Assembly (NCBI GenBank): GCA_015680685.1 | Contig: MNCI01002109.1 | Span: 462,784-526,783 of the forward strand | Source: Gnetum montanum | Taxonomy: Eukaryota > Plantae > Gnetophyta | DNA length: 64,000 bases | Direction of reading: 5' to 3' | Shown: in pieces, positions 1-62,319 of the stretch | How the letters are laid out: each line of letters starts with the position of its first letter | How positions within the stretch are numbered: the stretch's first letter is position 1 | The notes under the pieces: generated by a model | Database searches by the model: none | What the model was told of the DNA's origin: nothing | Seen by the model: only the letters and a program-made list of their open reading frames with translations | Translations under genes and position numbers: made by a program

Positions 1-369
1 GCCACATCCTTTTCCCCATAACTACTACCCTCTAGAATATCATCAAAACCATACTCCACAACCTAAGTCTTCCTCTACTTATCCTTCTTCATATGCATTA
101 CATAACTATGCACTATCTAACACCACTTCCTTGCCTCCTGCACCACCAATGCTAGGAAAAATTCCTTTATAACCATAGCAACACAATGCTATGAGAGCAA
201 TAAACTTGCAATCGAATGATTATCTAGGTGGATTTAAACATAAGCCTCAAAAGAAGGCTTTCTTCAGGCACAAAGTCCATAGAAGCCCTTACAAATGTTT
301 GTGGCTACTAACTATGCAACAACTACTTCTGAAACTATTTTTGAGCCTCCTTCAAACTAAACATCCTCT

Positions 370-18030: not shown

Positions 18031-18176
18031 TGTAGAACATTCTTTGTGTTGTGTCTTTGTTTTGTTTTCATTCCACACTGCAGCATAGTCCCATTCTCAT
18101 CAGCTAATAATCCCATACCTATCCACTGTGTAATCACTGTAACTCGAGGACAAGTTTTCATTTAGTCGTGGGGGTA

Positions 18177-22753: not shown

Positions 22754-23009
22754 TGGAAACCATCATAACCGAGAGCCTTTCCATGACTCAACTTAGAACA
22801 AGCTACCTAATGCTCCTCCTTAGTGATATCAACTTCGAGACTTTGCAACATAGTAGAATTGATAAGGCTGGGGTAATTGAGGGTAGCAGCCTCAAATAAT
22901 GAGATGTCCATAGGGGTAGCTGCAAAAAGGGTTTCATAATGGTTCTTAAGAAATGAGAGGATACTATTGTGGTCAGTGATGGTGGTGCCATCACTAGAGA
23001 TTTTGTCTA
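22754..23009 (-). other. mis-oriented assembly fragment producing a perfect inverted repeat of 22541-22752
   Basis: Bounded by single Ns at 22753 and 23010. Its reverse complement duplicates the upstream LINE sequence and continues it into KALGYDGF. Confidence 0.85.
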
Positions 23010-24737
23010 NCACAACATAAAGTGAGACTTTATTCTGTAGACCATGACTAAACTTGGTTTTGGCCCTAAGTTCCTACATATGATGAAATGCTTATTCTTA
23101 GATGCTACTGCAAGATGAGCCACTACCTTCAGCATCACCTCTTCCTTTCCTATCCATAGGTTAGTGCATCAAGGATGTCCTCTTGCCCCTTACCTATTCA
23201 TCATCGTAGCTAACATTCTTTGTCATAAAATAAACCATGATATTCAAAATAAAGTTCTCATTGAGGTTTGCCTCTCTTCATCTCAACAACAGCTTCTTAA
23301 CATGCATGTCGTCAATGACTTCTTTTTTCTTGTTCAAAACACTACTACTAATTTACACCAGCTCTTATCTAGGGTAGAGCAATATTGCTCACTCTTAGGC
23401 TCCACTATTAATTGGAACAAATCCTCTGTTCATAGCTTTATGAATAATTATAGTCATGTGACCAACTATAATTGGAAGCTGCTTCAAGATCAAGACATCA
23501 TTAAGGTTTTGGGAATTCCCTTTCATTTTAGAGGTTCAACCTCTATTCTTTGGGAGTAGGCTATTTATTGGATTTAAAAGAAACTTAAAAAATGGAAGAC
23601 TAAACCCCTCACTCTAGGGGGTAAGTACCTTGTATGTAAGTCCATATGTGCATCTATCCATATGTATTACTCTTCGTGTTGGGTCCCCTACCAAGTTGCT
23701 TACCAAAAGCTTGAATGATTATTTTGTGACTTCATGTGGTCCTCTAAAGATTCTTAGAAAGGCTTCCATTGTGTTACTTGGAATATTGTTACTCTCCCTA
23801 AGAATAAAAGCGGCTTAGGTCTTTTAAACTCTTTTAAGCAAATAATTACCTTAGTTGCTAAGTGTTTGGTCTAGCATCTAGATGCCTTGGATATTATTGG
23901 GACTCTCCTCCAATTAAGACTTCATCAATCATTTTCCAAAAATAAGCCCTTTTGGAAAGGTATCCATTTTTTAAACTATATCCTTTTCCCCCACACTATC
24001 ATTATTCCTAGACCTCATGTTTTTAAAAGCATTTGGAGGGCTTGGCAAACTTTACATGATTATATTGATTGGACTAATGTCAAGATCAACCCTACTCTCC
24101 TCTCTAGGTTGTGTCCCTAGTGGTTACCTTTGTCACCTACTCCCCTTGCCATTACAAATGCTAGGGTTGCTACCTCTTAGTATTGGAAGGATGTTATTTC
24201 TTTAGATTATCTTCGATTGATTAGTCAATGGATTTTGGGGGTTGAGATTAATAATTTGTATGGGGATTCCAAAGTAATGCACCATTGCCTAGCTTGAGTT
24301 TACACCTTTTGCATTGCCATATGTAGCTAGATGTTTCAGTGCAAAGCACTTTTCCTAGCCTTCAATGGATTAATGGGTCAAAACTTCTACCTTATAGGTC
24401 ATATGTTCCCTTTCACCTTTTGCATAACTCTTCCAATATCCTTCAATGATGTAACAAGTCTTAGCACAAACAAGAGTCAGAACAATTCTGGATCTCCCCC
24501 TTCCAATGTATTTGGAAACTACTAATCCTTCCTAAAATTAAGCAATTCCTTTGGTGTCTCCTCCACCAAGGTCTACCTATTGGCAAATGTCTCGAACATA
24601 TCAAGATTCATAGTCCTAATTGCCCTCTTTGTGGTGGAAAAGAGGATTTTGTTCATGTGTTTTGACATTGTCCCCTTCGCACAACACCTATGGACATGTG
24701 CTTCCAAAGTAATTCCATCATGCAAGCTATCTCAAGA

Positions 24738-31700: not shown

Positions 31701-31971
31701 GAATCTTGCACATGTACCCCAATGAAACAAATTTTAAACATTGTGGGAAGAACCTTACATCATTGATGAAACTTTTCCTTCTGGGGCCATGATCATCTAC
31801 AAACCTGACAACCCAAATAAGCAACAAGTAGTCAACATTCAACAAATAAAACCTTTCCATGAGCCCAAGCCAAACAACTCAAGAAACACCTTGCTTGATG
31901 GAAAACCATGCTCAATCTTTCAAATCTCTCCCTTCAAACTTAGTCGTGGGGGAGATGGCCACCCATACTAA
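25772..31971 (+). pseudogene. decayed gag-pol
   Basis: ORF fragments at 26629, 28168, 28501, 29710, 30719, 30956 and 31741 carry gag, PR, RT and INT motifs. Confidence 0.9.
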
Positions 31972-34479
31972 CAACTCTTATGGCTCCATAGTCTTTTGAT
32001 TTTTTATTTTACACATTTTTGATTTTACAACTTTTTGTTTTCATCTTCTTTTTTTTTACATCTTTGTTTTACATATTTTTATTTTTAAGGTTATTGACCT
32101 TCTCTTAATTTTTTTACACCATTGTTAATATATTCAATATCTATTATCTACTCTTTTACCCTTTTTTATGGTTATGTTCGCTTGTGTTTAATGTGTCTCT
32201 CTACGTTTTTTGCTAACAAGATGGCAGGTATAATGGTAATGCGCTACTCAATGGTGGTATGCTTCATTTGTAATTTGATTATTGATGTTTAGTTTCTAAC
32301 TTTGAATGTCATTGCTAATGACTGGGACATGGTTTCTTTTCATGTAATAGGCATGAGTCCACATCATCCACCCATCCACATACTTTATGGTTTTCCTAGT
32401 TTTGGAAGCATGCAATCTTTTCTTCATTAATGTAACTTTAATAAATTGGTGACTTGTGTAGTTTCTATAATTGGAAAGGAATTAAAGGTTTGAACAGAGT
32501 ATGGCTTCAAAGGGATGTGGTATTCTTTATATTTTTCTATTTTCCTATGTAGGAGTGTTCTTGTAAGCCTATGACTATTTTGCATCATTTCACAATAGGA
32601 AGTCAAATAAGTCCTTGCATGATGTGGTCCTCATCACAAAAAAAAAAGAAAAAAGATGAGGATTCAAAGCACATCCCTTGGACAAAATAAATGTTAAAAT
32701 GCATGGGTCTTTGCATGGTGTGGTTCCCATTTAGAAAAAAAACATGGGGATTCAAAGTACACCCCTTAGACCAAATAAAAAGGCTACAAGCACTAGTTGT
32801 GAGACTTGTCTTGTCTCCTCTAACTAAGGTCCTTTCTTACTTCCTACCTTCGCTTCAATTTGGAACGGTGGTTATTTTGTGGGAGCATTCTTATGTCTTA
32901 AGGGATGAACTAGCCTTAGAATGTTGATGCGAAGTCACTAAAAGTGGTTGGTTTTGGTTTAGACTAAGGATGGATCCTACCAAGTCATTTAATCACAAAT
33001 TTCACAAGAGACTACATGTGACCATAATTAGGAACTCCATTCCACTTTCTCTATCATCCATCTATGCTTTGGCTTCATGTTTTGATTCAATATTCTGGTT
33101 TGATGTGTTGGGTTTCTTAGTCAATTACTTTGAAGTTATGCAAGGGCATAAAAGGCCTGTGCTTGCTTTGGGGAGGACCCACTTGCATATCTTTTGGTTT
33201 GGTTAAGTTAAGTTCTTTACCCTTAAACATTGTTATAATTAAATTCTTTTTATTTATCCTATCCATGACATCTAATTATATGTACCTTCACAACTATTTG
33301 TAATGAACTCCTTTTTATTGTTGTGAATACCCTCTTTCTAGTATTCCGTGTGTTAAGCTTTTTTTGAATTTTATGGATCGCTTCTCTTACTTAATCCATT
33401 TGTCAGTCTTTCCACTAATAATATCAAGCAACCAATCTATCACAATCACAACTTGGCTAGATAAAATCATTGATGAGACAAGGTATTCAGTTGTTATCTA
33501 TACACTATATATACTAATCCTTGGTTCTATTGTGATTGCAGTGGGAAGCGTGGATTGGAAGCAAGACTATCTTCACTAAGGAGGATGCGACCATATCACT
33601 CGTGAGAGATTGTTCATTATTGCTAGATCTCTTCTACCTCTCCCTCATTCTTCTATGTGAAGAGGGGTTGGATGTCCTTTGGATCCATGGGTGTTCTTTT
33701 CTGCTATCATGAACACCCAATTTTGTACATTCTCAAAGTTCAAAATGGATATTCATTAGTTGATTCTCCTACAACCTTAGAAAAGACCTATGCATTCAAG
33801 CAACACTCTTCAATAGGAATCTTTGCATTGAAACTTCCCTTCTTAAATTTGTGTGGAGTCACCATATGGGAGTCTCTCTATCTTTTAGTGAGCGCTCTCT
33901 CGTCCCAATTTCGACCACTCTCTCTTGTAACAAGTTGGTTAGTTTTGGTGGATGATAGTTCCCCAGATTGCAAATGGTTATTTATGAAGATGTTTCCTAG
34001 AGTCTCATTCCATGACTTATTGTGGTTTATGTACTTGATACCTTTTTACTATTAATAAAACTTCTTTTCGGGGTCCAACACCACCACCACCCACCCACCC
34101 ACCACCGCCTCCCCCCCCAAAATGAAGGTCCCTAGTATTTTTTAGTTCTAACTTTGCTTATTTTTACTATTGTGCAATACATCCAAAAGGTCCATAGAAC
34201 TTAATAAAATGTAAGTTTCAATTAAAAAAAATGCATATAATTATTATAAAATTTTAAGGTATTGTAATAAAATGTTTTTTCTTGTTTCACGGATAAAATA
34301 ATGAAAATTAAACTAAGAGTCAAAGCATTTTTCATGGTTTATGTAATTGATATCTTTTTTCTATTAATAAAACTTCTTTTTGGGGTCCAATACGACCCCT
34401 TCTAAAATGAAGGTCCCTAATATCCATACATTGGAATGAAAGGAAGTTGCCCATGCAATGCCTCTTCAACAATTTTTTT

Positions 34480-35400
34480 GAAATACTTTACATCATGATT
34501 CAGAGCGCACATAACGAAATTGCACACATAACGAAATATCAAATTCTTGAACTAAGACTCGGAATCTATTATTTCATTTTTCCGAAATACTTTACATCAT
34601 GATTCGTTTGAGCACACATTAATAAAACTTCTTTTCAGGGTCCAATACCACCCCTTTTAAATGAAGGTCCCTAATATCCATACATTGGAATGAAAGGAAA
34701 TTGCCCATGCAATGCCTCTTCAACAAAAAGTTGTTCCCGTTCCCTAAGACTCTTGGGAATCCCTTATTTCATTTTTCCAAAATACTCTACATCATGATTC
34801 AGAGCACACATAACGAAATACCAAATTCTTGAACTAAGACTCTCGGGAATCCCTTATTTCATTTTTCCAAAATACTCTACATCATGATTCAGAGCACACA
34901 TAACGAAATGAAATACCAAATTCTTGAACTAAGACTCTCGGGAATCCCTTATTTTATTTTTCCAAAATACTCTACATCATGATTCAAAGCACACATAACG
35001 AAATACCAAATTCTTGAACTGAGCTCAGAATCTGTTATTTCATTTTTCCAAAATACTCTACATCATGATTCATATGAGCACACATAACGGCCGAATACAT
35101 CATGATTAGTCTGAGCGCAAATAACGAAATACCAAATTCCTGCTCTTATCGTCAAGATTAAACAACGAGAAGCGTTACCCGTTATTTCATTTTTTCGAAA
35201 TGCTCTCATGATATCCATGATTCGTCAGAGCGCACATAACGAAATACCGAATTCTTAAACTGTCTTTCTTATTTTATAGTCAAAATTAAACAACAAAAAC
35301 CGTTACCCGTCATTTCATTTTTCCGAAACACTATACATTCAGAGCGCACATAACGAAATACCGAATTCTTGAACTGTATTTTTTTATTTTATCGTCAAAA
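34480..35400. repeat. ~85-90 bp tandem repeat array (about 9-10 degenerate units) upstream of the PME gene
   Basis: Unit core AAATACTCTACATCATGATTCAGAGCACACATAACGAAATACCAAATTCTTGAACT...TTATTTCATTTTTCC recurs, interleaved with a second duplicated block (AATAAAACTTCTTTT..GGGTCCAA..AAATGAAGGTCCCTA at ~34054, 34365, 34621). Confidence 0.9.
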
Positions 35401-35756
35401 TTAAACATCTAGAAGCCTTACATAGAAGAGGAATCCAGCTACCTTAAAAATAACTTAAACAAGAAAAATCCAACTCACACTGCATAAATTCAGAATAACA
35501 TCAACGGGATTACCCATCACAATCGATAATTTAGGCATTTTCATACCGAAAAGAGCGGCTGCCGCCTACGATTAACAAACATAATTGAAAACAAGACGGA
35601 CGCAGGCGAACCCGTTATTCTATATTTGAACACCGTTACCATTAACTGCAGAACGTGAGAATGTACGTATAGAGCCAGAAATTTGGAAATTTGCAAGTCC
35701 AGCCTTGCTCAGCAGAATAAAGAATTGGAATCCATCCGCATGGTAGCACGGTAAAG

Positions 35757-46411: not shown

Positions 46412-48591
46412 TGATGAATGATGAGGTACCTTTACGCTCAACGATATGAATACAAGCACATATGCGTGATTTGGTCGAATTCTGCGGATGGACTAGTTGT
46501 GACACCTAAATAGTTATACATTGACTGCAGTTTGCTATCTTTCCACTTGGACTAGTAGTAGCTTTGTCACATATGGTTTAGTCTAGAGTGAGGCATATGA
46601 TGTTGTCCCAATTCTACATTACTCCTAATAACAGAAAAGATAAATTGATTAAACTAATAATGGAAGAAAAACCTAAATTAGCCTATGGTGATGGTATTCA
46701 TCCTTAACACCATACATGTCTTGGACTTCATGGGATTATTGCTAGGCATGCCAAGTATTCATGCTTAAACACTCATGATTAAGGTATACACATTCCATTT
46801 AATGACAGGAAAAGTAAATAACAATAAATCAAATTGTTAACTAAAGAAAGCATTAAATAATTAAAAAAATAAAGATTAATCTAAGTAAATGCTACAATGA
46901 TGAAAGTAATCTTGATCTTTATTGCCAATCATGCATGTGTCCAAGTATGTCACACTTGAACAAAGGTGCTATGCAATTACAAATGTTACAGTACAAGCAT
47001 GCACTAGGAATAACTAGCTTGAAAGAAAGAAATTGAAAATTGATAACTAAATTGCCAAAAAAACTAAAAAGAAAAGAACTTCCCTAAAAAATTTCAACTA
47101 TGCACCTAAGTGCTATATTTATAAACTAACACAGGAATTACAATATCACATATACAATATTATATCCAGGCCATGATATTGCATACTCAATATCGAGGCT
47201 TGACAAACTACGATTCATAATACCCCCACAACTGAATAAAAACTCAACCTTGAGTTAATACAATGAGAAATAAGCCCATTATAAAACATTATGAAGGTAT
47301 GGGATTATTGACTACTATTGACTAACCATGCCACAGTATGGGAAACACAAAACTTGGAAAAAAAATGAAAATAAAAAATGTTGAAACTCATGTGGTTTTC
47401 GGAGGTGGTGGCTCCTTCATTGGTGCTTTTCCTTTGTTTGGTATTGTAGGCTTCTAAGATTGCTAACGTGTGAGAAGCACCTATGGTTTCTCTTCTTTCA
47501 TCTAGGGATCATGCACATTCTATGCTAATGTCCTAATGTTTGATGGAGCTAGCACCTCCCATGGACACAACAACTGTGGAAACATCTAGTTCGCTTTGAC
47601 ATACCATAAAGAAAACTACCATTGTTCCTCCTCATAGGCTCTGGATTTATCTTGTAATTCATGGTAATCTATCAGCCATCAAGCCAAATTTGTTGCTACA
47701 TCTCTTTGATCGTGGTAGCTTACTTTGACCACTTCTAATTTTGAGTTTGCAACTTCTAATTTTTGCAACATTTTCTTATGTTTAGCAAACTATGTCTCAT
47801 ACTTAGCATAAGTGGTGGGTACCTATTTCTCAAGCTCATTTCTCAAGTTTCCTACTATTAACATGGCTAAGTTGACATATCGTAGATTTTCCAACTCCAT
47901 GTACTCCATTAAGTCTTAAATTTGTAGGTCTCAACTTTTTAGTTTTACTTGTTGGGCAAAGGCATATGTGTCCAATATGGCTTGCCAGTTAGTGTGTTAA
48001 GCACTAAAAGAGTTAATGTGAGTCTTAGCCATATGGATCTCCTTTTTGATTATTTTTTTATACATCCCCACTTGATCATGAAAGTGCTCTTTCAACTTCT
48101 TATGCTTCTTGGCCTCATTCTACCATGCATTGATCTTTATTGCCATCTTTTGATAGATGGCATAGACCTCCTCCATAGAAAGGGTTCTATTTTCCCTAGC
48201 CAAGTGATTCATATCTTGGTTGACCCATACTAATTATTCTTGCATCTATTGAAAACTTTCTTCAAGAACATTCTTCTGTTTCTCAATTTTTGTCAACCAA
48301 AGATTTCTAGTAACAAGTTGTTTATTCTCCTCCTATAGGTTGATAGCCTTAACATGTGTGTACATTTAAGCTTATGCCTTGGAAGCATCCCAATCAACTT
48401 GTTCTTTCTCCCTTGTCATTTTTTATTTTCTTTCAATAATTTATTTATTTTCTCATTTCTAAAAACATATAATTGGTCAATTACGATGAATTGTAGGATG
48501 TCAAGCTTTTCTAGTAGTCTTTATAGCTTTGCTTCTGCATGCTCAGCCCTAACTTCAACCATGATCAATTTTCCTTTACTTGAAATGAGGT
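46412..48591 (-). mobile_element. Athila-like element fragment on minus strand (3' LTR 46412-47220, PPT, C-terminal ORF2)
   Basis: TGATGAATGATGAGGTACC at 46412 is the reverse complement of the family LTR end. CCCCCACAACT PPT at ~47223. 47400-48591 is the reverse-complement homolog of ~16780-18020. Confidence 0.85.
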
Positions 48592-50272
48592 TGAAACACC
48601 CCAAAATATGTGAGGTCATTCTCACTTCACCAAGCATTACAATTCACGCAGCACTATGGTAGTTCTCCAGGAGGAGAACACTCTCAATTCAGGCTGGTTA
48701 GTTCAGCAAATTTTCTACTTTGGGCATGAATAGGCTCTATGGATTATCCTGCTTGTTCACCTAAGTAGTCTGCCTAGCCGACAGCCTGCTTAGAAATGAT
48801 GTGCAGAGTTGGCAGCAGCATTCTGGATGTGCGAAACAATTCAGCAAGTTTTCTAAGTCACGAAGTCTGCTACGCTATGCTACACCCCGCTATGTAGTGT
48901 AGCAAGCTTAAGAAAACATTTGCAGAGTATAGTGCCACGCTACACCCCGCTATGTAGTGTAGCAAGCTTCAAAAAACATTTGCAGAGTACAGTGCCACGC
49001 TACGCTACGTTATGTAGCGTAGCGTAGCATAGAAATAACTATACAGCCAGTTTCATTGCCCAACTTCAAGTCCTTCAACAATGTCCCTTTCGGTTAGGAA
49101 GCGATGGAGCATGTCTGTTGCTATGCTACGCTAAGCTACATGGCGCAGTGAGGCGTAGCAATCCTATAGAAGAAACAGAAGGCAACTCAAAGGGCAAGAC
49201 CAGCAGGTTTGCAAGTTTCATAGTGCAGGAAGCAAAGTTCATAGATTGGAAAAATTATTTGCGACTAAGGCCAGTCGCTATGCTATGCTACGCTACATAG
49301 CATAGCATACCATAGCAAGTATGTAGCCTACATGTGGCAAAACACACGAAAACAGGCTACGTTATGCTGAGCATGCTATGCTAAAAAACACAGTGAAGCA
49401 TGCGGGTGGTTATGCGACATCAATGCACTTCACCTAATTGGACCGTTGGCACACATCTCCAGATGCTGACAATGCAATTACGGCATGGCAAGCTCATAGT
49501 TGCGGCATGATAGACTCATAGTCACAATGGTCATGCATGTCCAATGGTCATACTAGCACATGCAGCACAAGCAAGTCAACGAAGGCCTAGGGCACGTGGC
49601 GTCCAAATTGCCCCTTTCACATACCCTTGGTCCTATAAATACCCCAACGAGCAGCATTTAAAGGGTTCAAAATTTTTCCAAGTTCTCGACTTTTCTTCTC
49701 TTTGGCAACACGAATTCTCTTCTCAGCACATTGTAACATCAAGCATTATAAGCTTTCTGTTTGACATTGCAAACAGTTAGCATTCCCAGCTGACATTTTG
49801 TTCTGTCCCTCTTCTACCACCTTGGTAGAATCCCCACATTGTTAGTGCCTAAGTTTGCACCCAAGCACATAACCTGCTTTGCTCTACACATCCTGGTTAC
49901 TCTCAGGATCTCTACACTCTGTCGTGTTGTGCAACCGATTGTATCCATCTTGACAAAGCAAACTTGTAGCTTCAGAGCGATGCATTTTTCTAACTGCATT
50001 TTACTTTGTTTCCTGCTTATTGTCATGTGTTGCATTGTTTTCTGATTTATTTACTTTCAAGCATTACTTTGCATTTTCGCCCCTGTTTTCAAATGATATG
50101 TTGTAAAAGGCTATATAGACATTGATTAAGTCCTTGTTTAATCGACCAGACCGTTCAGGGCACCCTGTATCCGCACACACCCAGCATGGCCATCCCGTGG
50201 GTATAGGGTCGAAACGGTCACGCCCACCAACCCCTCGGTGTTTTCCAGCCATCGACGTTTTTGGTTGCTACA
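48592..50272 (+). repeat. 5' LTR of the Tat element (~1.7 kb)
   Basis: Homology to the host Athila ORF2 stops at 48591 and TG follows. TATAAATA at 49634-49641. Ends ACA just before the PBS. Confidence 0.75.
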
Positions 50273-50278
50273 GTTTTT

Positions 50279-50295
50279 TGGCGCTAGAAGGAGGG
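50279..50295 (+). promoter_or_regulatory. primer binding site, tRNA-Asn type
   Basis: TGGCGCTAGAAGGAGGG is the complement of the plant tRNA-Asn(GUU) 3' end CCCTCCTTCTAGCG-CCA, the primer type used by Tat1-like elements. Confidence 0.85.
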
Positions 50296-50399
50296 ATTTT
50301 TGATGCCTTTTTCATGTGGCATGGTAGTTCTCTAAGCGTTATGTACCTTGATACACATAAGCGTAAATGTGACACCCTCTAGTGGTTGTTTACGCTTTG

Positions 50400-50890
50400 T
50401 GCAGTGCAGATAGGTCGCCTCGACAGTTCCTCGGGAGCCCTATAGAACACAAGGCCTCCAATTGCCAATTAACTAGCCTGTTTGATGGTATTCTTGCTTG
50501 AGCTCTATACCTCATTGCGCATTAGCGTATCATGTGGTATAAGTCGGTCGCTTCGACGATTCCCCTGGAGCCCTGCGAGACATAAAGCCTTTTTGTTCAC
50601 TAGTTAACTTGCTCATCCTACGGTAGTCTTGCGTGCACTCTGTACCTCATTGTGCATTAGCGTATCGTGTAGTACAGGTCAGTCGCTTCAATGGTTCCCC
50701 CGGAGCCCTACGAGATGTAAAGCCTACTTCATTAATTTATTTGCCTATCTTATGGTAGTCTTGCACATGCTCTGTACCTCATCGCCCACTAGCGTAAACG
50801 TGACATCCTTTTGCAGTTGTTTATGCTTTGTGTGGTGCAGATTGGTTGCCTCGATGGTTCCTCAGGAACTCGGCAAGATGTAAAGCCTTC
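50400..50890 (+). repeat. ~135-160 bp degenerate tandem repeats in the Tat 5' UTR (4 units)
   Basis: GGTCGCYTCGA..GTTCC..GGAGCCC...AAAGCCT core at ~50412, 50546, 50682, 50843. Confidence 0.8.
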
Positions 50891-50963
50891 ATTTAGTTGC
50901 TTTTCAGTCTCTTTATTCTTTTTGCACTTTTTTACGCTCTTTTGCAAAACTACTTAGCTTGCA

Positions 50964-53900
50964 ATGGCTTTTTCAACTGCTACTGCCAATGCCTTTAATG
51001 TGGAAGTTCCCTTCAATGTTGAAGCTCCCATCATGGTTTAAGGCACTACTGGTGCCGAACAACCATTGAATCTGATGCTAGAAACACACTGATCTCTCAA
51101 AATCCAAAATCGGGGACCTGAGGGATTGGCCTAGCAACATGAGCGTTACAGTTTCCTTTGTGCAAAGGTGTAGGCCAATCTGCCCTTGGATGTACACGAA
51201 CTCGAGGACAAATGTAGCTTCGAGTTCGCTTACTGCAACGGGAAGGAATTTGTTCCTACTCCTGGCATTTCTTTACCTTTAACACAAGTGTACCAAAGGC
51301 TTCTAGACCAACTAATCCAGTTGGCTAGGCTTAGGGAGCAACAAGACACAATTTCCAACCAAAATGATGCTTTCCAGGACGAACAGGAGGAACTTGATTC
51401 CCAATCAAATGAGGGAGGTCTAATCGACCCTGCTCCTGTCCCTCATACCCAGTCCTTTTGGGCCAAGCTGTTTTCTGTTACCGCTCCCTTTATAATCATG
51501 CCTACGCTTCTACAACCTGCGATTACAGCTACTATGGGTAACCACACCAATCTTGTAGTGTTTCAATGCCTGCTCTCGCCTGTTTCTCTTGTCTCGTTTG
51601 CAGCTATTGTCCCTTTGCAGGTTGTTCATAAGTCTATTCCTGTGGCACATATCATGCCAACCATGGCTACCCTGCCACATGCTCATATCGTATCTACTTC
51701 ACAGTCATACGCGACTTTTGTCTTTATTCCTACGTTCATGTCTATTCCACCCACTATGGCGGGCCCTAACCCATCCACACGGTGGGCCCCATTTGCTTCT
51801 TTGCCTACCCCGTAGTCGTTGTAGATGTCTCACTACGTTCGCTCTCAAATCCACCAAGCCTCGCAGACGGTACAACCCAACATAGGGCTATGGTCTACGT
51901 TGCCAGTGATCCAAGTGGTCCATCCGACAGCCCAACCAATGGTTGCTGCTCTAACAACACCACCCATAGGGTGGTGGACAACATAGGTAGCATCGCTCAT
52001 GGGGGTTGTTCCAATGGTACCATCAATGGGTCACACTGCCACCCCCACCATACCATAGGTGGGAGTGGCCTTCGTAGCCCCCCAACCGTCTACAACAACG
52101 TCGGGTCTAGACCAAGTGTTTCAGCTCATCCAGACCCTCACCAAGGAAATAAAATGCCTCAAAGCTACTAGGTCTGACACGGTACAAGTCATGGACTTCT
52201 ACTAGGATGACCCCATCAGCCCTACAATCCTTGCTTTGACACTACCCCCAGGGATGTCTCTTCTGCATTTCATGAAGTACGATTGGGAGGGAGATCCCAA
52301 TGCACATCTTATCACCTTCAGGTTTGAGTCTATGCTATTGCAACAATGGTCGCACATGATCATTCGCCTCTTCACTATGTACCTAGCTGGGAAAGCCCTT
52401 GATTGGTACCGTGCATTGCCATGCTCATCCATTTCAACTTTGGAAGAGCTACTGATCCAGTTCGTGACGCGCTTCAAATACAACTTGAAGCCAGAAACCA
52501 CGCTGGACCAGTTGATGAGTGTGAAGCAAGAGCCCCTAGAGCCAGTCCAAAAGTTCATCCAGCATTAGAGTGCAACCCTTAGCGAGATCTGCGAGCCCAT
52601 CATGGAGGCCCACCTGTTGGCTATCTTTAAGGGCGTAGGGAACGACTTCATCAAGTCCAAACTGTCCTATCTTGCTCCTTGCTTTCTTAGTCAGGCTTTC
52701 ACTCAGACTAAGAGCATACAAGAAGCAGCTGAGGCAAGCAAAGACCCGACCTATATTTCTTACAAGAACACATTCACAAAGAAGGAAAAGGATAAAGCCC
52801 CAACAACCATAGTTGCCATTATGATAGCTGAGGCCAAGCCCAAACCTAGCAACAAGGGTAGTAAGAACAACAAGGAACCAGCCACACCTGCGGCTAACCT
52901 TGCGCCCAAATCGAGCCACATGCTGCAACCTGTTGTACCTACACCTGAGGAATCTGCACAATCCAAGCCCAACTTTGAGCGCAAAGACCGCTCAAAGTAC
53001 ACCTCGTTGCCTCTTAAGCCTTCAAAACTTCTGAAACAACTACTGGTAGTGGGATACATCTGACACAAATAGATGTCAAAAGAAGTAATCGCAAAACATC
53101 AACTCTACTGCGAGCTCGTTAGGAACCCCTCTTTGGCTCTGCCCAATGAGACTCTCGTTCCTAGGGGTTCAGGCTAGACATGTTTTGTGACTACCACCAA
53201 TAGTGTGGTCACAACACGGATTACTGTATGGCGTTATAGAATGACATCCAGAGATTAATAGACCAGGGGAAACTGGTGTTAGACGAAAGCAACCCAATAC
53301 TCCCCGAAAACCAATCTATGTATGTCTACATGAACCCTTTCAATGCTAATAATGTCGATTACGTAATCAACAACATCGGCATCGACAGTGAGCCTAGGCC
53401 ACCCCAACAGCCATTCATAGTCCGTGTTGCTCAACGTAGTGCACTAGTACCACAAGCAACTAATCAAAGCTCGCAACAGCCTTTCGTCCTGAGAGTCCCA
53501 CCACGGGCATCCACTTTCATGCCACCTATTGGTGGGATCATGCGGTCCCACCTGCTAACACCTCTAGCTCCATTCATCATCAAAGGGTTGATGTCCTTGA
53601 AGGTCCCTGTCTCACGCGAAACAATTGAGCAGCCTTCTTACCCCGCAAGGTGAGAAGTCCACTTTGTAGGCGAGATGTCTAAGGGAAGTACCATCCCAGG
53701 TACCCCTAAGCCTACGTCCTCGCTCCTTGCATTTGTGCCAAAGACAAAGGTTGACACGACCATGCAGCCTACATCACTCTACCAACAAGGATCTGAGCCC
53801 AGATCCGAAGTTTCTTTTCCTCGAGAAATTTGTCTTCTGGGACGGATAAAGGAGGAGGAAGGCATCAAACTAGGAGGTGGACAAGACCTCTTAGACGCCC

Positions 53901-54774
53901 TCACACAAGTCAAACAAGCTCTAAAATAAAGGAATGCTACACTGAGCTTGTATGACTTGATCATGACATCTACTGCACACCGAGATGCTCTGATCTGCAT
54001 GTTGACAGTGACTCTGGTCAAAGAAGATATGCCAGTGGAAGAAGAAGCAATCTACTCGGTCATGCTTTCCTCTGCACCCGCAGGGTCAAAATGGCCTCAA
54101 CTAACCTTTTGCAACGACGCCATTAGGAAGACCTTGAGAAGGGTCAAGTGATCACATCATCCCTATTCATTATAATTTGGGTTGGTCAACATCAGATCTG
54201 AAGGGTACAGGTTGATGACAGGGCTGCCACAAATGTCATTCCCTTCCCCATTGTAGACAAGCTGGGCTTGGTCAACTAGATCAAGCCCACAACAACGACA
54301 TGCCTAAGGTTGTTCAATGGGGTACGAGTCATGGTAAAGGGCACAGTTCACATAAACTTCGTAGCAGGGGACTAGTTCCCCACAGACGCAACGCTTATTA
54401 TGGTCAAGGAAATGCCTGGGTTTAACCTGATCTTGGAGAGATCATGGTTAGCACAACTTAGGGATGTCTCCTCACCCATACACCAGGAGATTCGCCTACC
54501 TTACGTAGGCAGAGAAGTGGTGATCCACGGTGACGAAATAGCAACGCAAGCGATCCACAACGTAGGCATGGAAGAAGGCTCAGAGGTTATAACTTCTGAG
54601 AATGAAGCACCTGTTGCAACTTACAATGACTACCAGGTGGAGAGCTTGGTTTACCGAGTTGATCCCCAAAACGAAAATGCATGGACTGAGTTGCCCTTCC
54701 AATTAGGAGGCAATGACACAGATGAAGGCCTTGATGGAGCACCTTGGCCTTATGTCTCACTCAACTTGCATTAG
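50964..54774 (+). pseudogene. decayed Tat gag-protease
   Basis: ORFs at 51186, 52236, 52602, 53276, 53675, 53948 and 54400; capsid, zinc knuckle and aspartic protease motifs. Confidence 0.85.
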
Positions 54775-54848
54775 GTCAAGAAGTAGATTTGCCTAGCGTA
54801 CCAGCCCCACTACTTCCTGCTCACATATTACTCATATGCTTCAATGTT

Positions 54849-55050
54849 ATGGCCCGAAATGGCTGAAAACTAGCAATATGCAATGGCCCAAAATGGCCTA
54901 AAACTAGCAATGCTACGTTATGGCCTAAAATAGCCTAAAACTAGTGATACGCAATGGCCTGAAATGGCCTAAAACTAGCAATGCTACACTATGGCCCGAA
55001 ATGGCCTAAAACTAGCGATACGCAATGGCCCGAAATGGCCTAAAACTAGC
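54849..55050 (+). repeat. 6 tandem copies of ATGGCCCGAAATGGCCTAAAACTAGC (period ~34-37)
   Basis: Direct read; two spacer types alternate between units. Confidence 0.9.
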
Positions 55051-55417
55051 ACATGAAAGCATGAACATTCTATACAAAATGCATGTATGCAATACACAAG
55101 TTAGTGCAAAATCCTCTTGCCTCATTCAAAACTGTTGCCTTTCAATGTTTGCAAAATTTGTTACACAAAATTTCAAAAATCCAAAATTTCAGATTTTCAA
55201 ACAAAAAATCCCATGCAGTCATGGTTTTTCTCTATTTGCATCTTTTTCACCATCCGATCCTTCATCATTGCCCTGTGCATTGCCTTCTCTCGCGTTGCCC
55301 GCAGTCAGCTCTTCATCCCTTCACTCTACGGGTACTGTGCCACCACCTGGGGCCTGCATCATGGAGGTGAAGTGGTTAGTTAGGGCAACAAACGCAAACT
55401 ACAATTGAGCATAAACA

Positions 55418-58400
55418 TTAACACAGTAGAAAGCGATTAACTTGAGAAGGTCCCACATCTGTCTCGAAGGGTATCTAGCCTAAGTCAAGCCTGAGGCGAC
55501 GCTAGACCTCCTCCGCCGTGATATCTATCCAACGTCTTCTGTCTAGTGTAGAATCTGCTGCGGCAGCTCTCTCCCTTTCGGCGGGTGTCCACCTTGGCAG
55601 TCCCGGAGAATAGGAGACGACCGTAGCCTCTCCTATGGGAAGGGTCACTTTCAGGTTAGGATATTTTGTGACCTTGACCTGCTCTTTGAACTTGGTGTAA
55701 GTCTCATAAGCATCAATGACATTTACGAATGCTTCGTATGTAAATGCCTCCACAATAGCATCTTTGTATAACTTACAATGGGCGGCAATTTCCTGTTTAT
55801 ACATATGCTTATGGTTTCTTTAGGTCTGCCCCCATTCGAAAATTTTGGTGCTAAGGTCTTTTAGATCTTGACACTTCTGGTCTAGCAGGTCCATCTGCAT
55901 CCGTTGCTCTATCAGTTTGCGGGTAGTCTCAACATTCTGGTGTGCAACTGTCCAAAACCTGGCGTGGTCTACCACCGTGGTGCGCCAGTCCTCATTGTTA
56001 GTTTTGTAGGCCATGAGGAACTCATTCCTTGACTTGAGGTCCTCCACCTCAGCCCTCAAGTTAGCTTCTCTCTACTCTAACTTCTGGGCTCGTTTCCACA
56101 ATTCTTCATTGGTATGCTTACACTCCCATAGGGAGTGCATTGAGTGCAAAGCGCATTTGCAGACCTCATCATATGCACGACGAGACATCTCAATCAGTTT
56201 TGGCGGGAATGTGGACACGACACCGACCCTCAAAGGTTGTGTCGAGTCCCACTTGAATCGAGAGGCTACCATAATACAAAAAATACACTAGTTGCATTAG
56301 CATAGCACAAGTGGCAAATGCAAGAAACCTTAGCATAGCAACATGAGAGTAGATAACACTACTACTTACCTACTTCAAGGTCCACCTGCTAAAGGCACTT
56401 AATCATGTCATCAACAATCCCCTGCATAAACACGAATTTGTTGAGGATTTTAACCCAAGGCTCGGTGTGAACTGGAGTGGGTCCTGTGGCATCAACAGTA
56501 GCATTTGTCGCATAACCAAATACATTAGCAATGACCAAAATGGACTATGATAAGACAGACATATTGCCGAACTCACCAATGTCTGGTTGTGGTCTCTTGT
56601 TCGGTTGATGCAAAACGATGGTGGAGGCCTGGCCGAAACTTCCTCCCAAGTCCTTGTAGACCTCCTCTTCATGCCCTGGTGTTTTTCCTTTGAGGAGACC
56701 AGCATCTTGTTTATCAAGGGAGACTCCTCAGTAGGAGGATTCTCCCTAATGATGAGAGCCCTTTCCCTAGTCGCAGGAGCCTCCTTCTTCTTAACTGAAG
56801 CCCCTCTCTCTGAGATTGGGGCCCTTGTGCCTTTATAAGTCGCCCCCATCTTAGGGGCCGACACCTCTTCGTTGCTTGTTTCTTCTTCTTCTCTTTCTTC
56901 TAATAGTTAGACATGTTGGCATTAGTTCAAAGCAAGTAGCCTAAGGCAGATGCTACGCTACGCTACACCATCTAGCATAGTATATCATAGCAGACAATAG
57001 AAAAACAAACACTGAATAAAAGTGCTTACCAATAGGAAGTCGTGTCCTCTGCCCCTTATCCTCCTCCACGCAAAGGACTGGGGGAGGCCTCTTCTGCCAC
57101 AATGTGCTGGTAACTATTTTGGCTATGAAACGCTCACCCCGTGATACGCTACCATCTATAGCGGGGGGCGTCTCTCCTATGTTGTCCTGGCCATGAACGT
57201 TGCGGGCCACCCAATCCTTAGTTGTTACAGAAAATGACTCCCCAAGTATTTTTGGGGGATCTTGGGCTTGAATGGTTTTGGAAGACCTGGCGAATCCATG
57301 GTCTAAAAATCTGGTCGTGATTCCGCAAGATCCAGTTTCCTCACTCTTGAACCACCAGGAACTCCACAAAGCGCTTAAGGTAGCCTATATAAAAGGCATA
57401 GTGGATGTTGGAACGAGACTCTATTTTTGTACGGTGCTCCAAGATCTCAGTCTGCAAGCCTTTATACAGAGACTCGGCCCAGTTGTAATGAGTCCCCTCC
57501 TCCATAATCTCATGCATTATTCAAGCTTGCTCAAGCCCCAGGACCTTTCCCTGGGTGAGCAGCTAGGGAAATGCATGAGCACGGAAGATGGGGTAGAACT
57601 CCTTGGCGGGTCCTTCCTTAAGTTTCTCCATAGGGAGTTCCTTATGCTCCTTGGTGAGCCCTATCCACTCCTAGAGGTCCTTCTTCTGAAGGGTCAATTC
57701 CATCTTGGATTTTGATCCTATTGAAATGCCTTTAGCAGGGATGCCAAACAGATCCACGAACAGCTAGTCATTGATGTCAATGACCACTTGCATGCCATGC
57801 ACGCATAGGCAAAAGTGGCCCACCTTGTCGAAAAAGGATTCAACCAAGGTGAGCATCTCATCTGCAGTAACGTTCGGATTTGGGGCCAGGAATAGATCCA
57901 TAAGCTCCACCTTTTCGATGTTCTAGAGCAGAGCGTCTGAGGCCCCACTGTTCAGCCAGCGTTGGCTCTTCTCTACTTCCCCATACTTGAAGTAGGCATT
58001 TCCCCCCTATGCCTCGGTGGTTACCACCGTCACCTCCTTAGGCTTCTTCGCCCCTACAATAGGTTCACAAAAAATTTAGCACAAAGACAAAGGAAATTCA
58101 AAATTTGCAAAGATATTTAAACATGTGGCACTTACCGCTCGACTTACCAAGTTGATATGGCAGTGGGAACTATGGGAGTTCAATCAGAACTTGTTCAACT
58201 GTGACTAGTTTGAAGGGTTTCACCCACTCCCCATCCAACTAGCCCTACCTCTTGCATTGATCATAGAGGGGAGAATACACATCTAGGTAGGTGTAATATT
58301 CACCCCTGCATTGACAAATTACACTGGCCTACAGGTTCTCAGTCGAAGAGAACTCCTACAGGGCTAGTTGTGCTATAGCCAATAGACCCAGAAGGTCATG

Positions 58401-58955
58401 AACACCATCCTCATCAAGGAAGAATTTGGTAGCAAATGCATACTGTGAGCATTAGGCAACTACAGCCAATGTCGCACAAACATAGTAGAACAAGGCTGCG
58501 AAACTCACCTGCCAGCAACGTAGACAGTTCCTTGAGGGTTCTGAAAGCACACCGTCATAAAACTTGCAAGGAACAATGTGTTGAAAGGGTGGTAGCAGCT
58601 ATACTCAGTCATCTCCCAAATCCAGGCCAAGCGCCTTAACCCTATTGGGCACTGATTGGATCCTTCTCCCCACCCGCTCACGATGGCTCCGTCGGTGAGG
58701 AACCTCAAAATGCCTCGGCTTGCCCTAAGAAAAATGGTTTCTGTGATGCCAGCCACCTCCTCCTCTAGGAAGGACCAAACGATCACGCTGAAGTGGTCAA
58801 GGAGGAATTGCAAGAAGTCCTATGCCCCTGGTCTGAACCAGACCCCTCACTCTCCCATATGTATATGGGGAGGAGGAGCATTAGCCACAAGTCTACTCAC
58901 GTGACACAGGACCCCTCTAACTTTCAAAACAATCAGCCTGGGCCTCAGCCTCGCC
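55418..58955 (-). pseudogene. antisense spliced accessory gene: FCP1/SCP-like (NIF/HAD) pseudophosphatase + PMD/Transposase_32-like domain + coiled coil; exons approx 58955-58509, ~58442-58136, 58053-57030, 56899-56577, 56483-56370, 56265-55418
   Basis: Manual translation gives RPRLIVLKVRGVLCH..VWFRPGA*DFLQFLLDHFSVIVWSF..LRRLAWIWE..NTLFL..QNP, then ID IND*LFVDLFGIPAKG..YNWAESLYKGL, then ORFs 56272/56059/55804 in one frame. Minus-strand donors GTGAG/GTAAG and YAG acceptors; three junctions join in phase. Stops are mostly TAG/TGA, consistent with deaminated CAG/CGA. Confidence 0.75.
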
Positions 58956-59897
58956 CTACACAACACAATTTGCAAAATGATAGCATCATATCTAAGGACA
59001 ATACAACAATGCCTAGCAGTTCATACGTATAGCGTAGCATAACCCTTTGCCTGCACATAGCGTAGTAAGGGCGTAAAAGCCTAGCGTAGCAAGAACATGC
59101 AAGTAGCCTAGCATAGCAATAGAACAATTGACGACATATCGCATCACATATGGCCTAGCCCTTCTAAGGGTTCTACGTTACGCCATTTGAAGAACAAGCA
59201 ACCTAAACTGCCCAAGCCCCCGCGGTTATGACAACCGTAACGGTGGCAATTTAAGTAGCCTTGCATGCAATAATGATGCAACATTTATGCATCTACCATG
59301 ACTGAAACGACGGTAGCGATGCAAGAGCCACAATGACACGACAACAGAAAACACAACCAACCAAGAATGGATGCAAAGTGAATAGGACGCAAAACAAAAG
59401 TAGAGAATAACAGAAAACACAAAATAAAAAAAAGCAGATGGAGCGTAACCTACTAGGTCAATGGTGTGCTCTTATGCATCGCAACATGCAATTGCATCGC
59501 ACACCCTAGGATCTTCTTCATGTCCTCGACCTTTGCAAGTGCCAAATGAGTCTTAGGAGCCATTGTCCTGATTGCAGATGTACACTCTTTGCTGTAAAAA
59601 CTTACCTCGCTAGCCGCTATCACAATTGCTCCGTGCTCCAAAATCGACATGTGCTCCAATGCAGGCTCTGCTCTCTTAAGGTGAGAAAGGCAAAATTGCT
59701 GGGGTTTAACTTTTATTTATGGTCATAATGACAAGATAGAGAAACTTTCCACTCTCTCTCACTGATTAATGCAGAGCACGCCATATAGCATAGCATGCTC
59801 GCCACGACATCGTAGCACTGTTAGCATTAAAGCCTTGACACGCTTCGTGTCAGCTGTGTGCTTTCCTAAATAAAAAATATATATTTTTGTTTTTGTT

Positions 59898-60385
59898 ATG
59901 GATCCGAAAAGACCTTAAACTAGTAATCCTAGCAATCACAACACGACGGGTCCAAAAAGACCTTAAACTAGCAATCTTAGCATAGTTGCATCTCTAATGG
60001 TCCGAAAAGACCCTAAACTAGTAGTGTCAACCAGTTATGTTCACAGTCCGCAATGACGTTAAACTAAAAATACCACATTCTTACATGGGAGGTTTTCATG
60101 TCTTCTTCCACATTGGCGGTGTCGCAATCTCTAACAATTTCATGTTTTTTATGTCAAGAGTTCATTGATTTCGCATTAACGGTTTTACCTTTCTTATACC
60201 TACAATTCCCCATTTTGCATACTATCATTCTGCATACTAAGATTTTGCATGTTATGATTTGGCAGTCCGAAATGACACTAAACTAGTAGTTTGGCATTTA
60301 CAGTTTAACATTTGCATATTGACATCTCTAGCGATCTTGCACTATTATGTCTTGGCAGTCCACCATGACTTTAAACTGGCAAACT
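59898..60385 (+). repeat. 6 copies of (G)GTCCGAAAAGACCTTAAACTAG-like motif
   Basis: Copies at ~59900, 59949, 59999, 60045, 60264, 60357. Confidence 0.8.
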
Positions 60386-60505
60386 TTCAATCTTTACATC
60401 GTCACACTTCGCAAGTTGCATTCCCTCACTACTTTGCAAACTTTCATTATACACAATCTCTGCCAACGGACGCCTCTTAACTAGGCTTTTATCTCATGCT
60501 AGCAG

Positions 60506-62319
60506 GTCGAGCAAGAGATGAAAATCCATCGCAACCTCTCCATGCGCTTAACGTTAACAGGTCCACGAGGTAGGCTCGCAAGACAGTTGAACCCTAACAT
60601 GATTGACTGGGGTTTGACCACAGCCGATACTATAGTAGCCTTAGAAGCATCCCCAGACTGGCCTGAGCATCTAGTCCAAGCCCTAGACTTAGAGGTCGGG
60701 GATGTAACCGAGGAACCTCTTTTCGAAATGCCTGTGACCATCTCAAAAGGGGAGATGAAAATGTTAAAACTCAACTCCCTCTTAGATACGTAGATGCACA
60801 ACAACATAGCCAAGATTTTGCAAGACAATATCAATGTCTTCACATGGTCGTACAACGACATCCCATATTTGGATCCGTGGTTGATTCAACACAACATCGT
60901 CCTAGACCCGCGTATGAAGGCAGTCAAGTAGAAGGCTTGCAAAGTTAAGTAGGAAATCGCACTAGCCATGAGGGATGAAATCACCAAGCTATACTAAGCT
61001 GGTTTCATCCGCGTGGTAGACTACTTAGAGTGGGTGTCCAACATCGTTGTCGTTTTGAAGAAAATAGGAGGAATACACATCTATATAGACTTCCGAAACT
61101 TGAACAAGGGAACAATCAACGACAACTTCCCACTTCCAAGCATCGATCAACTCATTGACACCACGGTTAGTCACGCTTTACTGTCCTTGATGGATGGTTT
61201 CTCCGAATATAATCAAATTTGCATTAACCTGGAGCACCAGCTATCAACAACCTTTATGACTCCATAGGGTACCTTCTGCTACATCATGATGCCTTTCAGG
61301 CTCAAAAATGCTAGAGAAATATACCAGCGAGCCATGACCTACATTTTTAGTGACCATATCCTAGAAACACTAAATGACTACGTGGATGATATAGCTGTCA
61401 AGTCTAAAGAGGAAGCTGATCACCCACACGATCTAGGAGTAGTCCTCAAGTGCTGTCAAATGCATGACTTGCACCTCAATCCTAAGAAGTGCATCTTCGG
61501 GGTGAAAACTGGACGCATGTTAAGGTTCATAGTATTGGAGGTCGGAATACGGGTGGACCTTGACAAAGTCAAGGCCATCGTCAACCTGGCACCTCCCAAA
61601 AACCTTAAGGAGCTACGTGGTTTGTAGGGTAGAGTATAGTTCATTCAAAGGTTCATATCAAGGTTGACTGACAAGTTACACCCCATGCAACATCCTCTAA
61701 AGAAGGGGGTTAAGTTCGAGTGGACAACCCAGTGTCAACAAGCCTTCCACGACTTGAGGAAGGAGCTTTCACACCTCCCAACCGTGCATCTGCCACAAAG
61801 GGACAAACCCTTCTTCATCTACCTCGCCACCTCTAACACATCTGTTGTGGCACTGCTATGTCAGAAACAAAACAAAAGTTCTGAGATACCTATGTATTAT
61901 CTGAGTCATGCACTAATAGCGCATGAGGTGAAATACAATGAAGTGGAGAGGAATTACCTTGCCTTAGTGTTCGCACTAAAAAAGTGGAGGCATTACCTAT
62001 TTCGCAGTACAACCAACATCATTTGCAAAAGCAATATACTTTGGGCTATCACTAACAACCTATATGAAAGTAGCAGGATAGTCCGATGCAAGGTAATAAC
62101 CACAGAGTTCGATTTATACTATGTAAGTCAATCATCGATAAAGGGTCAAGCCATAGCAACCCAACTCACCGCCTCGCCCATCGACGACCAGGCCACCATA
62201 GACCCCGAATTCCTGGACGAGCACGTTAGCAATGTCGACATTGTCCCATCGCATCTTGAAGCCACTTTACACTTTGTGATGGTGTATCAACCACACGAGG
62301 AGGTAGCGCAGTTGCTATC
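60506..62319 (+). pseudogene. decayed Tat RT-RNase H and start of archaeal-type RNase H
   Basis: ORFs at 60518, 61013, 61286 and 61664; VFTWSYNDIP.LDP, DNFPLPSIDQLID, YVDDI, LNPKKCIFGV. Confidence 0.9.

Follow-up and report, generated by a model that had tools for sequence, protein, structure and literature searches.

We hold with middling confidence that a plant retrotransposon encodes, in a predicted antisense accessory protein that would target its own element, a pseudo-NIF module whose catalytic aspartates have been replaced in most related copies. The window, meaning the whole stretch of 64,000 nucleotides that was analyzed, carries one decayed copy of this element. Judged from its sequence, the FCP1/NIF-like domain at 58955-58509 of the minus strand is real. 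With these aspartates gone from most of the related copies, the domain is likely a pseudophosphatase, that is, a non-enzymatic binding module, possibly one that helps the element to escape silencing.

The carrier element and its antisense gene

The element belongs to a large family of plant retrotransposons with a backward-facing extra gene, predicted to have seven exons. In the window, the element is a decayed, Tat-like member of Ty3/gypsy, and the gene is predicted between its protease-like region and its reverse transcriptase (RT). The parts of the element lie on the plus strand, beginning with an inferred 5' LTR at 48592..50272, whose start is approximate. A primer-binding site was read from the sequence at 50279..50295, which we take to be of the tRNA-Arg type. 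A decayed gag lies at 50962..53060 (Retrotrans_gag, E 4.6e-5), and the region at 54180..54775, which has no Pfam match, was picked out by eye as presumably protease-like from its retropepsin motifs. RT (E 1.3e-12) and RNase H (E 7.9e-24), both decayed, were matched by Pfam at 60700..62250. Neither an integrase nor a 3' LTR was seen in the window, and the element is cut near 62250. A scan with the RT yielded a single relative (54%), carried by a contig of 1.9 kb. Between the protease-like region and RT, no Pfam match on the two strands pointed to an extra archaeal-type RNase H, which argues against membership in TatI/II; the sites where Ogre, Retand, and TatIII have theirs are lost in the window copy. 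A repeat scan located a tandem array of 34/71 bp units at 54846..55051, at the 3' end of the antisense gene, and a related plus-strand array lies upstream of the gene at 59898..60290. A CC(T/A)AAACTAG core is common to both.

All seven exons of the antisense gene are predicted on the minus strand. Candidate exon 1 (59454..59563) would start with the ATG at 59563, and its donor is uncertain. Exon 2 (58509..58955) holds the putative NIF/FCP1-homology pseudophosphatase domain of the HAD fold, assigned by homology, a fold model, an AG acceptor, and a GT donor; it has two stops in the window copy. Exon 3 (58136..58442) has a coding-like stop pattern with TAG stops only, and its phase is mismatched with that of exon 2 in the window copy. 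Exon 4 (57030..58053) is roughly 340 codons long and shifts frame near 57300, and a Pfam scan of it gave no match. Reading of the sequence further suggested exon 5 (56577..56899), a low-complexity linker that is first acidic and then basic, and exon 6 (56370..56544). Exon 7 (55476..56265) contains a likely coiled coil, with weak JAKMIP_CC3 and DivIC matches in the Pfam scan and no homologue by word-indexed protein search. No DNA-binding domain was identified. Beside exon 2, the six further exons have one coding-like frame apiece, and the coding frames of the gene share the TAG/TGA-biased stop pattern of gag and pol. Two poly(A) RNA runs gave 0 reads on a 114-base stretch, a count that is no gauge of expression or splicing.

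A short motif, TAGCRTAG, occurs 29 times against 2.7 expected, a contrast to be read with the fact that the motif was chosen after being noticed in the sequence. The LTR region has 13 of the occurrences, at 48870-49383, three predicted introns have nine, and two lie upstream of the gene. The 3,181 bases of predicted exons hold none.

Homology and active site of the NIF domain

Exon 2 matched Pfam NIF (PF03031) with E 0.0018 and 18.4 bits, below the cut-off of 21.8. In a phmmer search with exon 2, all 37 matches were NIF proteins of the D-x-N-G subfamily (best 3e-9), aligned over motifs I-IV, and those spanning most of exon 2 were 25-33% identical to it. A profile of the matched domains scored exon 2 at 75.8 bits (positions 5-156), a partly circular value because the profile was built from matches found with exon 2 as query; the next-best site in the window scored 7.7. 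The homology asserted by the initial annotation is therefore above chance, and the peptide it quoted indeed lies in a single minus-strand frame, at 58954-58511, with two stops. Its further reading of the downstream exon (F.DE..D.LG...EFSSTENL..YSPLYD) as the C-terminal helices of the host protein was not supported, with -2.1 bits at best and 284 of 591 random window pieces matching or beating it. No element-encoded relative was found among the 37 profile matches. One Logan protein, P0013, combines NIF with a weak Ulp1 match. Word-indexed protein searches with the NIF exon at near and longer lengths returned nothing, scans of metagenome contigs and viral contigs found no loci, and a direct PDB sequence search with exon 2 gave a single, unrelated match (E 0.35).

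The D-x-N-G subfamily (PF03031) occurs in land plants, algae, and protists, for example as Sphagnum KAH8970694.1, Selaginella XP_024520960.1, and Ficus GMN54308.1. Its members align with exon 2 in full length over motifs I-IV and share a V-W-S-S motif II with the element, but they are cellular genes, and in some of them the second domain is already eroded. We found no functional study of the subfamily in the literature searched on mechanism and host genes. It is plausible that the domain was captured from a host gene. The phylogeny proposed for finding the donor was computed from 44 rows by a quick method, with a careful search unfinished, and it placed the element outside all groups, on a branch of 4.55 changes per column.

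SCP1 takes up the phosphoryl group on its first Asp and binds Mg2+ through an acid of the DD pair (PMC3215212). Active FCP/SCP enzymes of the HAD type have DxDx(T/V) at motif I, Ser/Thr at motif II, Lys at motif III, and an acidic pair at motif IV; exon 2 retains only the motif II residue. At motif I (minus strand, as for the other motifs, 58916..58924), the window copy reads K-V-R (K-V-R-G), most related contigs read Glu-(Ile/Val)-Arg, and hosts read D-x-N, with D in 39 and the +2 N in 36 of 43 host NIF domains. At motif II (58772..58774), Ser is kept, and in 65-90% of depth a Ser-type codon follows it, which gives the V-W-S-S found in hosts. Motif III (58634..58636) is Arg in place of the Lys found in 43/43 host domains. 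Motif IV (58562..58567) is Ala-Ser, whereas hosts have Asp-Asp (42 and 37 of 43). The element family mostly reads E-x-R, R, and A-(likely R) at these sites.

The family state was derived from contigs in six DNA runs (four plus two), read position by position as share of depth; the survey sees contigs at least 80% alike. The first base of motif I was Glu-type in 91, 91, 90, and 95% of depth in the four runs and in 90 and 83% in the two. An Asp codon stayed below 5% in both runs where all 22 rows at 5% or above were listed. Lys-type codons were a minority of about 5-17%, and the third base varied only between the two Glu/Lys options (10-12%, two runs). The +2 codon is Arg, with no variant row at 5% or above in the two fully listed runs, a fixation that seeding may inflate. 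For motif III and the first motif IV codon, no change appeared among the best 40 of 229 rows (four runs), which bounds alternatives only at about 53% each, a cut-off estimated from the smallest shares among those rows. In 52-75% of depth, the second motif IV codon has C as its first base and is likely Arg, with Asp at this last position bounded at 25-48% or less; a minority Lys at motif III and a minority Asp at motif IV are possible.

Taken together, the catalytic loss is very probably family-wide and not a decay of the window copy. The initial annotation had argued for death of the domain by replacement, with K, R, and A-S possibly fixed among copies. The window residues are as it described, and the replacement itself extends to the family, with Glu-x-Arg, no Asp codon at 5% or above in two runs, and no majority change of the motif III Arg or motif IV Ala among the best 40 of 229 rows. 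K/R/AS as a fixed family state was rejected, with K and S being minority states among the related contigs. Its argument that the changes need transversions fails at three of the four sites: the Lys of the window copy is one transition from the Glu of most copies, K-to-R is likewise one transition, and D-to-S (GAT to AGT) is two. Only D-to-A requires transversions.

Possible functions of the accessory protein

It is quite possible that the accessory protein acts as a self-targeting regulator. The antisense gene would have its own promoter, and because its introns are oriented against the genomic RNA, reverse transcription would leave them in place. The predicted product, made up of the pseudo-NIF, a middle domain, a charged linker, and a coiled coil, might be recruited, as VANC anti-silencing proteins are, to the arrays of TAGCRTAG found in LTR and intron sequence. 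Up to three predicted arginines would stand where the Mg2+ ligands stood, and the emptied site could accommodate, with no need of metal, a phosphorylated partner or the backbone of a nucleic acid. A fuller version, which we regard as doubtful, is a sequence-specific anti-silencing protein made from a repurposed phosphatase, binding the TAGCRTAG arrays while its dead, arginine-lined NIF pocket grips a phosphorylated host chromatin or transcription factor.

An unlikely alternative is that the domain is passive cargo, a captured NIF fragment that soon became nonfunctional and that the element multiplied along with itself, its protein unselected. The very long branch fits this, as does the change of all five acidic or basic active-site positions. 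Variable sites in the NIF frame lean synonymous when both tables are combined (28/59 against 18.5 expected, p 0.0068, the best of six frames), which argues against an unselected protein, although neither table is significant by itself (14/22, p 0.062; 15/40, p 0.19). Also hard to square with cargo are the hydrophobic core and motif II, retained over the full-length alignment, the presence of exon 2 in contigs of four organism labels, and the single coding-like frames of the six further exons. Were it cargo, the element architecture would still be unusual, and the interest modest.

The initial annotation had favored a decoy or tether for the Pol II CTD, in which the dead domain would still attach to the phosphorylated CTD, shielding polymerase at the element or recruiting it there. 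We consider this improbable. The fold model of exon 2 (pLDDT 82.8), which is not independent evidence because it was built on the alignment of NIF matches, had SCP1, UBLCP1, CTDNEP1, Tim50, and Fcp1 as top VIA/Foldseek matches, and SCP1 was nearest (Z 14.0, rmsd 1.9, 129 aligned; Z 11.9 for UBLCP1, 11.4 for CTDNEP1, and 10.9 for Tim50). The inactive SCP1 D96N mutant binds a phospho-CTD peptide (PMC3215212), and arginines could stand in for Mg2+ in phosphate binding. However, identity to SCP1 is 14%, and Tim50 and CTDNEP1 share the fold; the solved FCP1-homology domains compared are 13-18% identical to exon 2, which lacks a DxDx(T/V) motif. By sequence, the nearest solved relative of the subfamily is UBLCP1 (E 5e-12) and not SCP1 (6e-4), and the source subfamily is D-x-N, not D-x-D. 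SCP1 binds phospho-Ser5 through Mg2+ (PMC3215212), whose ligands are gone here. Among Arabidopsis SSP proteins, the account in PMC8774115 has CTD activity shown for three (SSP4, SSP4B, and SSP5) and 13 others merely annotated. The proposal is thus left unsupported.

Even less probable is that the antisense unit acts mainly as RNA or as a spacer between gag-protease and pol, with the protein incidental. A regulatory role by way of dsRNA is possible for antisense transcripts of LTR elements (PMC7264820), and in Ogre a spliced intron lies between gag-protease and pol (PMC4408406); the synonymous lean and the frame-specific stop depletion point instead to selection on a protein. Slimmest of all is the chance of remaining catalysis, by copies with D...DD intact or by altered Glu chemistry, for which the acid kept at motif I, the motif II Ser, and the contigs below 80% likeness and 189 lower-share rows outside view leave room, but which the rarity of the motif I Asp codon, the lack of a majority Asp at motif IV, and the substitutions at the general acid position and at the two acids that bind metal oppose.

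If the anti-silencing version were true, it would place a VANC-like system inside an LTR element and account for the recurrence of NIF domains as cargo in non-flowering-plant transposons. The family also points to the conserved D-x-N-G subfamily as a repeated source of transposon cargo. Large LTR families fill giant plant genomes, and an element-encoded shield against silencing would help to explain their spread.

Comparison with known systems

A functional precedent for the pseudo-NIF module is Tim50, a non-catalytic binding module of the FCP1-homology fold. The carrier resembles the Tat clade (Ogre, Retand, and gymnosperm TatII/TatIII) in its Ty3/gypsy gag, RT, and RNase H, in the protease-like region, which stays beside gag and is separated from RT like that of Ogre (PMC4408406), and in an antisense extra ORF that ends in a likely coiled coil (PMC4408406, PMC6317226, PMC11963269). 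Published Tat extra ORFs, however, either precede gag or follow pol, and the domains in them are PMD, Transposase_28, ATHILA ORF-1, or SMC-like (PMC6317226 supplement 4), whereas the gene in the window lies between the protease-like region and RT, with predicted introns and a NIF domain. In the open-access literature searched and the readable supplements of PMC6317226, no LTR retrotransposon with a NIF/FCP1 domain came up. What the extra ORFs of Tat-type retrotransposons do is described as an open question (PMC4408406, PMC7264820), and a host-type domain, a family-wide switch to non-catalytic residues, and a candidate target motif together make it testable.

Fixation of a host enzyme domain in a gypsy family has a parallel in the AlkB m6A demethylase of orchid Ty3/gypsy elements, which differs in being an active enzyme while the NIF module is without catalytic residues (PMC9289625). 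NIF is not named among the 15 domains found in 121 angiosperm genomes in the text of that paper, its supplementary chart aside. In motif layout, the gene resembles the VANC genes of VANDAL/MuDR elements, multi-exon accessory genes whose target motif is massed, often in tandem, in introns and terminal DNA; within its own element, VANC21 binds such a short motif in introns and in non-coding terminal sequence (PMC5735166). TAGCRTAG has this same distribution. VANC belongs to DNA transposons and the present gene to a retrotransposon; the likeness lies in the multi-exon gene and the motif layout, and binding of TAGCRTAG here is putative.

The predicted antisense gene and its NIF domain

The sequence has a plant-like character. 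The decayed Ty3/gypsy element begins with an inferred 5' LTR at about 48592-50272 and a primer-binding site at 50279, and is cut near 62250; neither an integrase nor a second LTR was seen within the 64-kb window. Past the primer-binding site, the 5' leader (50399-50888) holds about four repeat units of 133-135 bp each. Pfam recognized gag (E 4.6e-5), and a protease-like region (about 54180-54775) was identified by eye, without a Pfam match. A gap of 5.9 kb (54775-60700) separates this region from RT (E 1.3e-12) and RNase H (E 7.9e-24); candidate routes for pol expression across it are splicing or an own start near 60450-60700. The gap contains a predicted seven-exon gene on the minus strand, with GT/AG-type boundaries. 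Stops are depleted in one frame for each of the six exons tested, and those that remain are, with few exceptions, TAG or TGA, matching the pattern in gag and pol. Splicing of this gene is predicted, and the phases of exons 2 and 3 are mismatched in this copy.

On sequence comparison, the domain predicted in exon 2 (58955-58509, minus strand) is a genuine NIF domain, which bears out the FCP1-like assignment of the initial annotation. The match to Pfam NIF (PF03031) itself is weak (E 0.0018; 18.4 bits, under the cut-off of 21.8). An unindexed phmmer search with exon 2 against 1.84 billion representatives gave 37 matches at E <= 0.001, the best at 3e-9, and NIF is present in all 37. A profile of 43 domains from these matches aligned with exon 2 over positions 5-156 at 75.8 bits, against at most 7.7 bits anywhere else in the window, and an alignment-driven structure model (pLDDT 82.8) matched SCP1 (Z 14.0, rmsd 1.9, 129 aligned), UBLCP1 (Z 11.9), CTDNEP1 (Z 11.4) and Tim50 (Z 10.9), Foldseek pointing to the same group; profile score and structure match are partly circular, as the profile comes from the phmmer matches and the model follows the alignment. 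The claim that exon 3 matches the downstream (C-terminal) region of the host proteins is not supported, with a score of -2.1 bits that 284 of 591 random pieces equalled or bettered.

Elsewhere in the window, a 211 bp inverted repeat without mismatches, its arms 46 bp apart (22530-23022), may be a genuine foldback or have arisen in assembly, and a complex array (34023-35421) is built of units of 90-95 bp and 255 bp. Other old repeats are a pair of 3.8 kb (335-4129 and 28209-32013; 66%), an inverted pair (16917-19003 and 46412-48478; 2.1 kb, 67%), and a direct pair 7.9 kb apart (10364-11120 and 18247-19003; 758 bp, 90%) that may represent the LTRs of another element.

Catalytic residues across related copies

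Nine DNA runs from three studies contain the exon 2 stretch wholly or partly. Contigs from four runs (organism labels A, B, C and D) were placed on 58480-58980 at 80% likeness, copies less alike falling outside this placement. The 3803, 3649, 3635 and 3166 contigs placed, most less than 95% alike, show a large, diverged family. Shares of depth below are not copy counts, and two runs, X1 and X2, possibly represent the source sample. At the first position of the codon for this copy's motif I Lys, the base is of Glu/Asp type in 91, 91, 90 and 95% of depth in the four runs. A second placement on 58872-58985 (397 contigs from X2 and 372 from another run, X6), covering all 22 rows of at least 5%, gave 90 and 83%. 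At the third base, the only change at 5% or more in X2 or X6 was one synonymous for Glu or Lys (10 and 12%); a base of Asp type did not reach this share. Therefore the family residue is Glu, and this copy's Lys is one transition from it. In SCP1, a change of Asp to Glu is inactivating.

The Arg codon at I+2 showed no variant of at least 5% in X2 or X6. For motifs III and IV-1, no variant row occurs among the best 40 of 229 in the four-run table, apparently those of highest share (the lowest about 53%), so that Arg and Ala respectively are the commonest residues or close to it; the data set only loose limits on minority subfamilies with active residues at motifs III and IV. The IV-2 codon is C-initial in 70, 75, 52 and 62% of depth, which excludes Asp and Ser for the copies concerned; the residue is likely Arg. 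Directly after the Ser of motif II, 65-90% of depth has a further Ser-type codon, like the hosts. For SCP1, the first Asp is described as the phosphoryl acceptor, and Asp206 as positioning Mg2+ (PMC3215212).

Exon 2 had been read as dead by replacement, not just by decay, with K, R and AS at motifs I, III and IV. At the family level this holds, with Glu at I, Arg at I+2, and Arg at III and Ala at IV-1 as the commonest residues or nearly so; K and S do not represent the family. Transversions, said to underlie all the changes, are needed for Ala only, not for Lys (from Glu), Arg or Ser. The original observation is confirmed in part, and its interpretation is supported in part: exon 2 is predicted to encode a pseudophosphatase throughout the family, within a Tat-like retrotransposon and at a position not previously described for an accessory gene.

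When variable sites were compared one at a time with the codons of this copy, 28 of 59 were synonymous in the NIF frame (18.5 expected, p 0.0068); no other of the six frames did better, the runner-up having p 0.072. Taken separately, one table gave 14 of 22 (p 0.062) and the other 15 of 40 (p 0.19). This synonymous lean lends modest support to selection on the dead domain.

Host relatives and the donor

The subfamily of phmmer matches carries D-x-N-G at motif I instead of D-x-D. Among the 43 domains, D stands at I in 39, N at I+2 in 36, K at III in all 43, and D at IV-1 and IV-2 in 42 and 37. Of the 37 matches, 20 were looked up, and the named members among them belong to Sphagnum, Selaginella, Calypogeia, Ficus, Asteraceae, Mantoniella and Creolimax. 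Among solved proteins, UBLCP1 is nearest in sequence (E 5e-12), with SCP1 at E 6e-4. Five matches (P0005, P0007, P0009, P0010 and P0022) are host proteins with a tandem NIF pair, the second domain having eroded motifs (e.g. E-x-D with E-N), and these second domains are a cellular precedent for pseudo-NIF modules.

Phylogeny, suggested earlier as a route to the donor clade, left the element outside every group on a branch 4.55 long, and the tree therefore names no donor. Another match, P0013, is a 912-residue Logan protein in which an intact NIF domain precedes a weak Ulp1 protease match, possibly as DNA-transposon cargo. Transfer from another transposon and direct capture from a host are candidate origins of equal standing.

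Proposed role and comparison with known systems

TAGCRTAG occurs 29 times in the window against 2.71 expected, with none of 100 shuffles above 8, an optimistic enrichment since the motif was picked after inspection of a repeat family. Thirteen copies lie in the LTR region, nine in predicted introns 1, 4 and 6, two upstream of the gene, one in gag and four outside the element. The predicted exons contain none in 3,181 bases, and this placement supports the intron model. Pentamer-type repeats of the motif, often inverted pairs, lie at 48870-49383, 56298-56338, 56953-56980, 59030-59116 and 59786-59985, all of them within the LTR region, the predicted introns or the DNA upstream of the antisense gene. 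Two related arrays in the same orientation (54846-55051 and 59898-60290), sharing a CC(T/A)AAACTAG core, bracket the gene.

From the motif placement, the likeness to VANC and the antisense Tat extra ORFs with their own promoter, we infer that the product would be a self-targeting regulator of its own element, putatively composed of a pseudo-NIF binding module, a middle domain that matched no Pfam family, a charged linker and a coiled coil. With Arg at I+2, III and likely IV-2, the module may have an anion pocket that needs no metal. That the gene encodes an anti-silencing protein seems rather unlikely. A decoy for the Pol II CTD, as initially proposed, would be one special case of such a binding module and is without specific support: the D-x-N-G subfamily falls outside the SCP1 clade by sequence, and the account of Arabidopsis SSPs in PMC8774115 gives CTD activity only for SSP4, SSP4B and SSP5.

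VANC21 is described as binding a motif of nine bases that clusters in the introns and the terminal non-coding DNA of the element encoding it (PMC5735166), and VANC has been proposed as a derivative of a repurposed host protein (PMC13547354). TAGCRTAG in the LTR and predicted introns resembles this arrangement, binding here being a proposal. The antisense extra ORF of maize Grande has its own promoter and a nuclear product, the function of Tat antisense extra ORFs being given as unknown (PMC7264820). Among the openly accessible papers searched, none describes an LTR element with a NIF domain; the word phosphatase is absent from the accessible text of PMC11963269, and NIF goes unmentioned in the section consulted of a screen covering 121 angiosperm genomes (PMC9289625). 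Tat extra ORFs in the published accounts lie before gag or after pol (PMC4408406, PMC6317226, PMC11963269), with PMD, Transposase_28, ATHILA ORF-1 and SMC-like domains (PMC4408406, PMC6317226 including supplement 4, PMC11963269), whereas the one here lies between the protease-like region and RT and carries a NIF domain.
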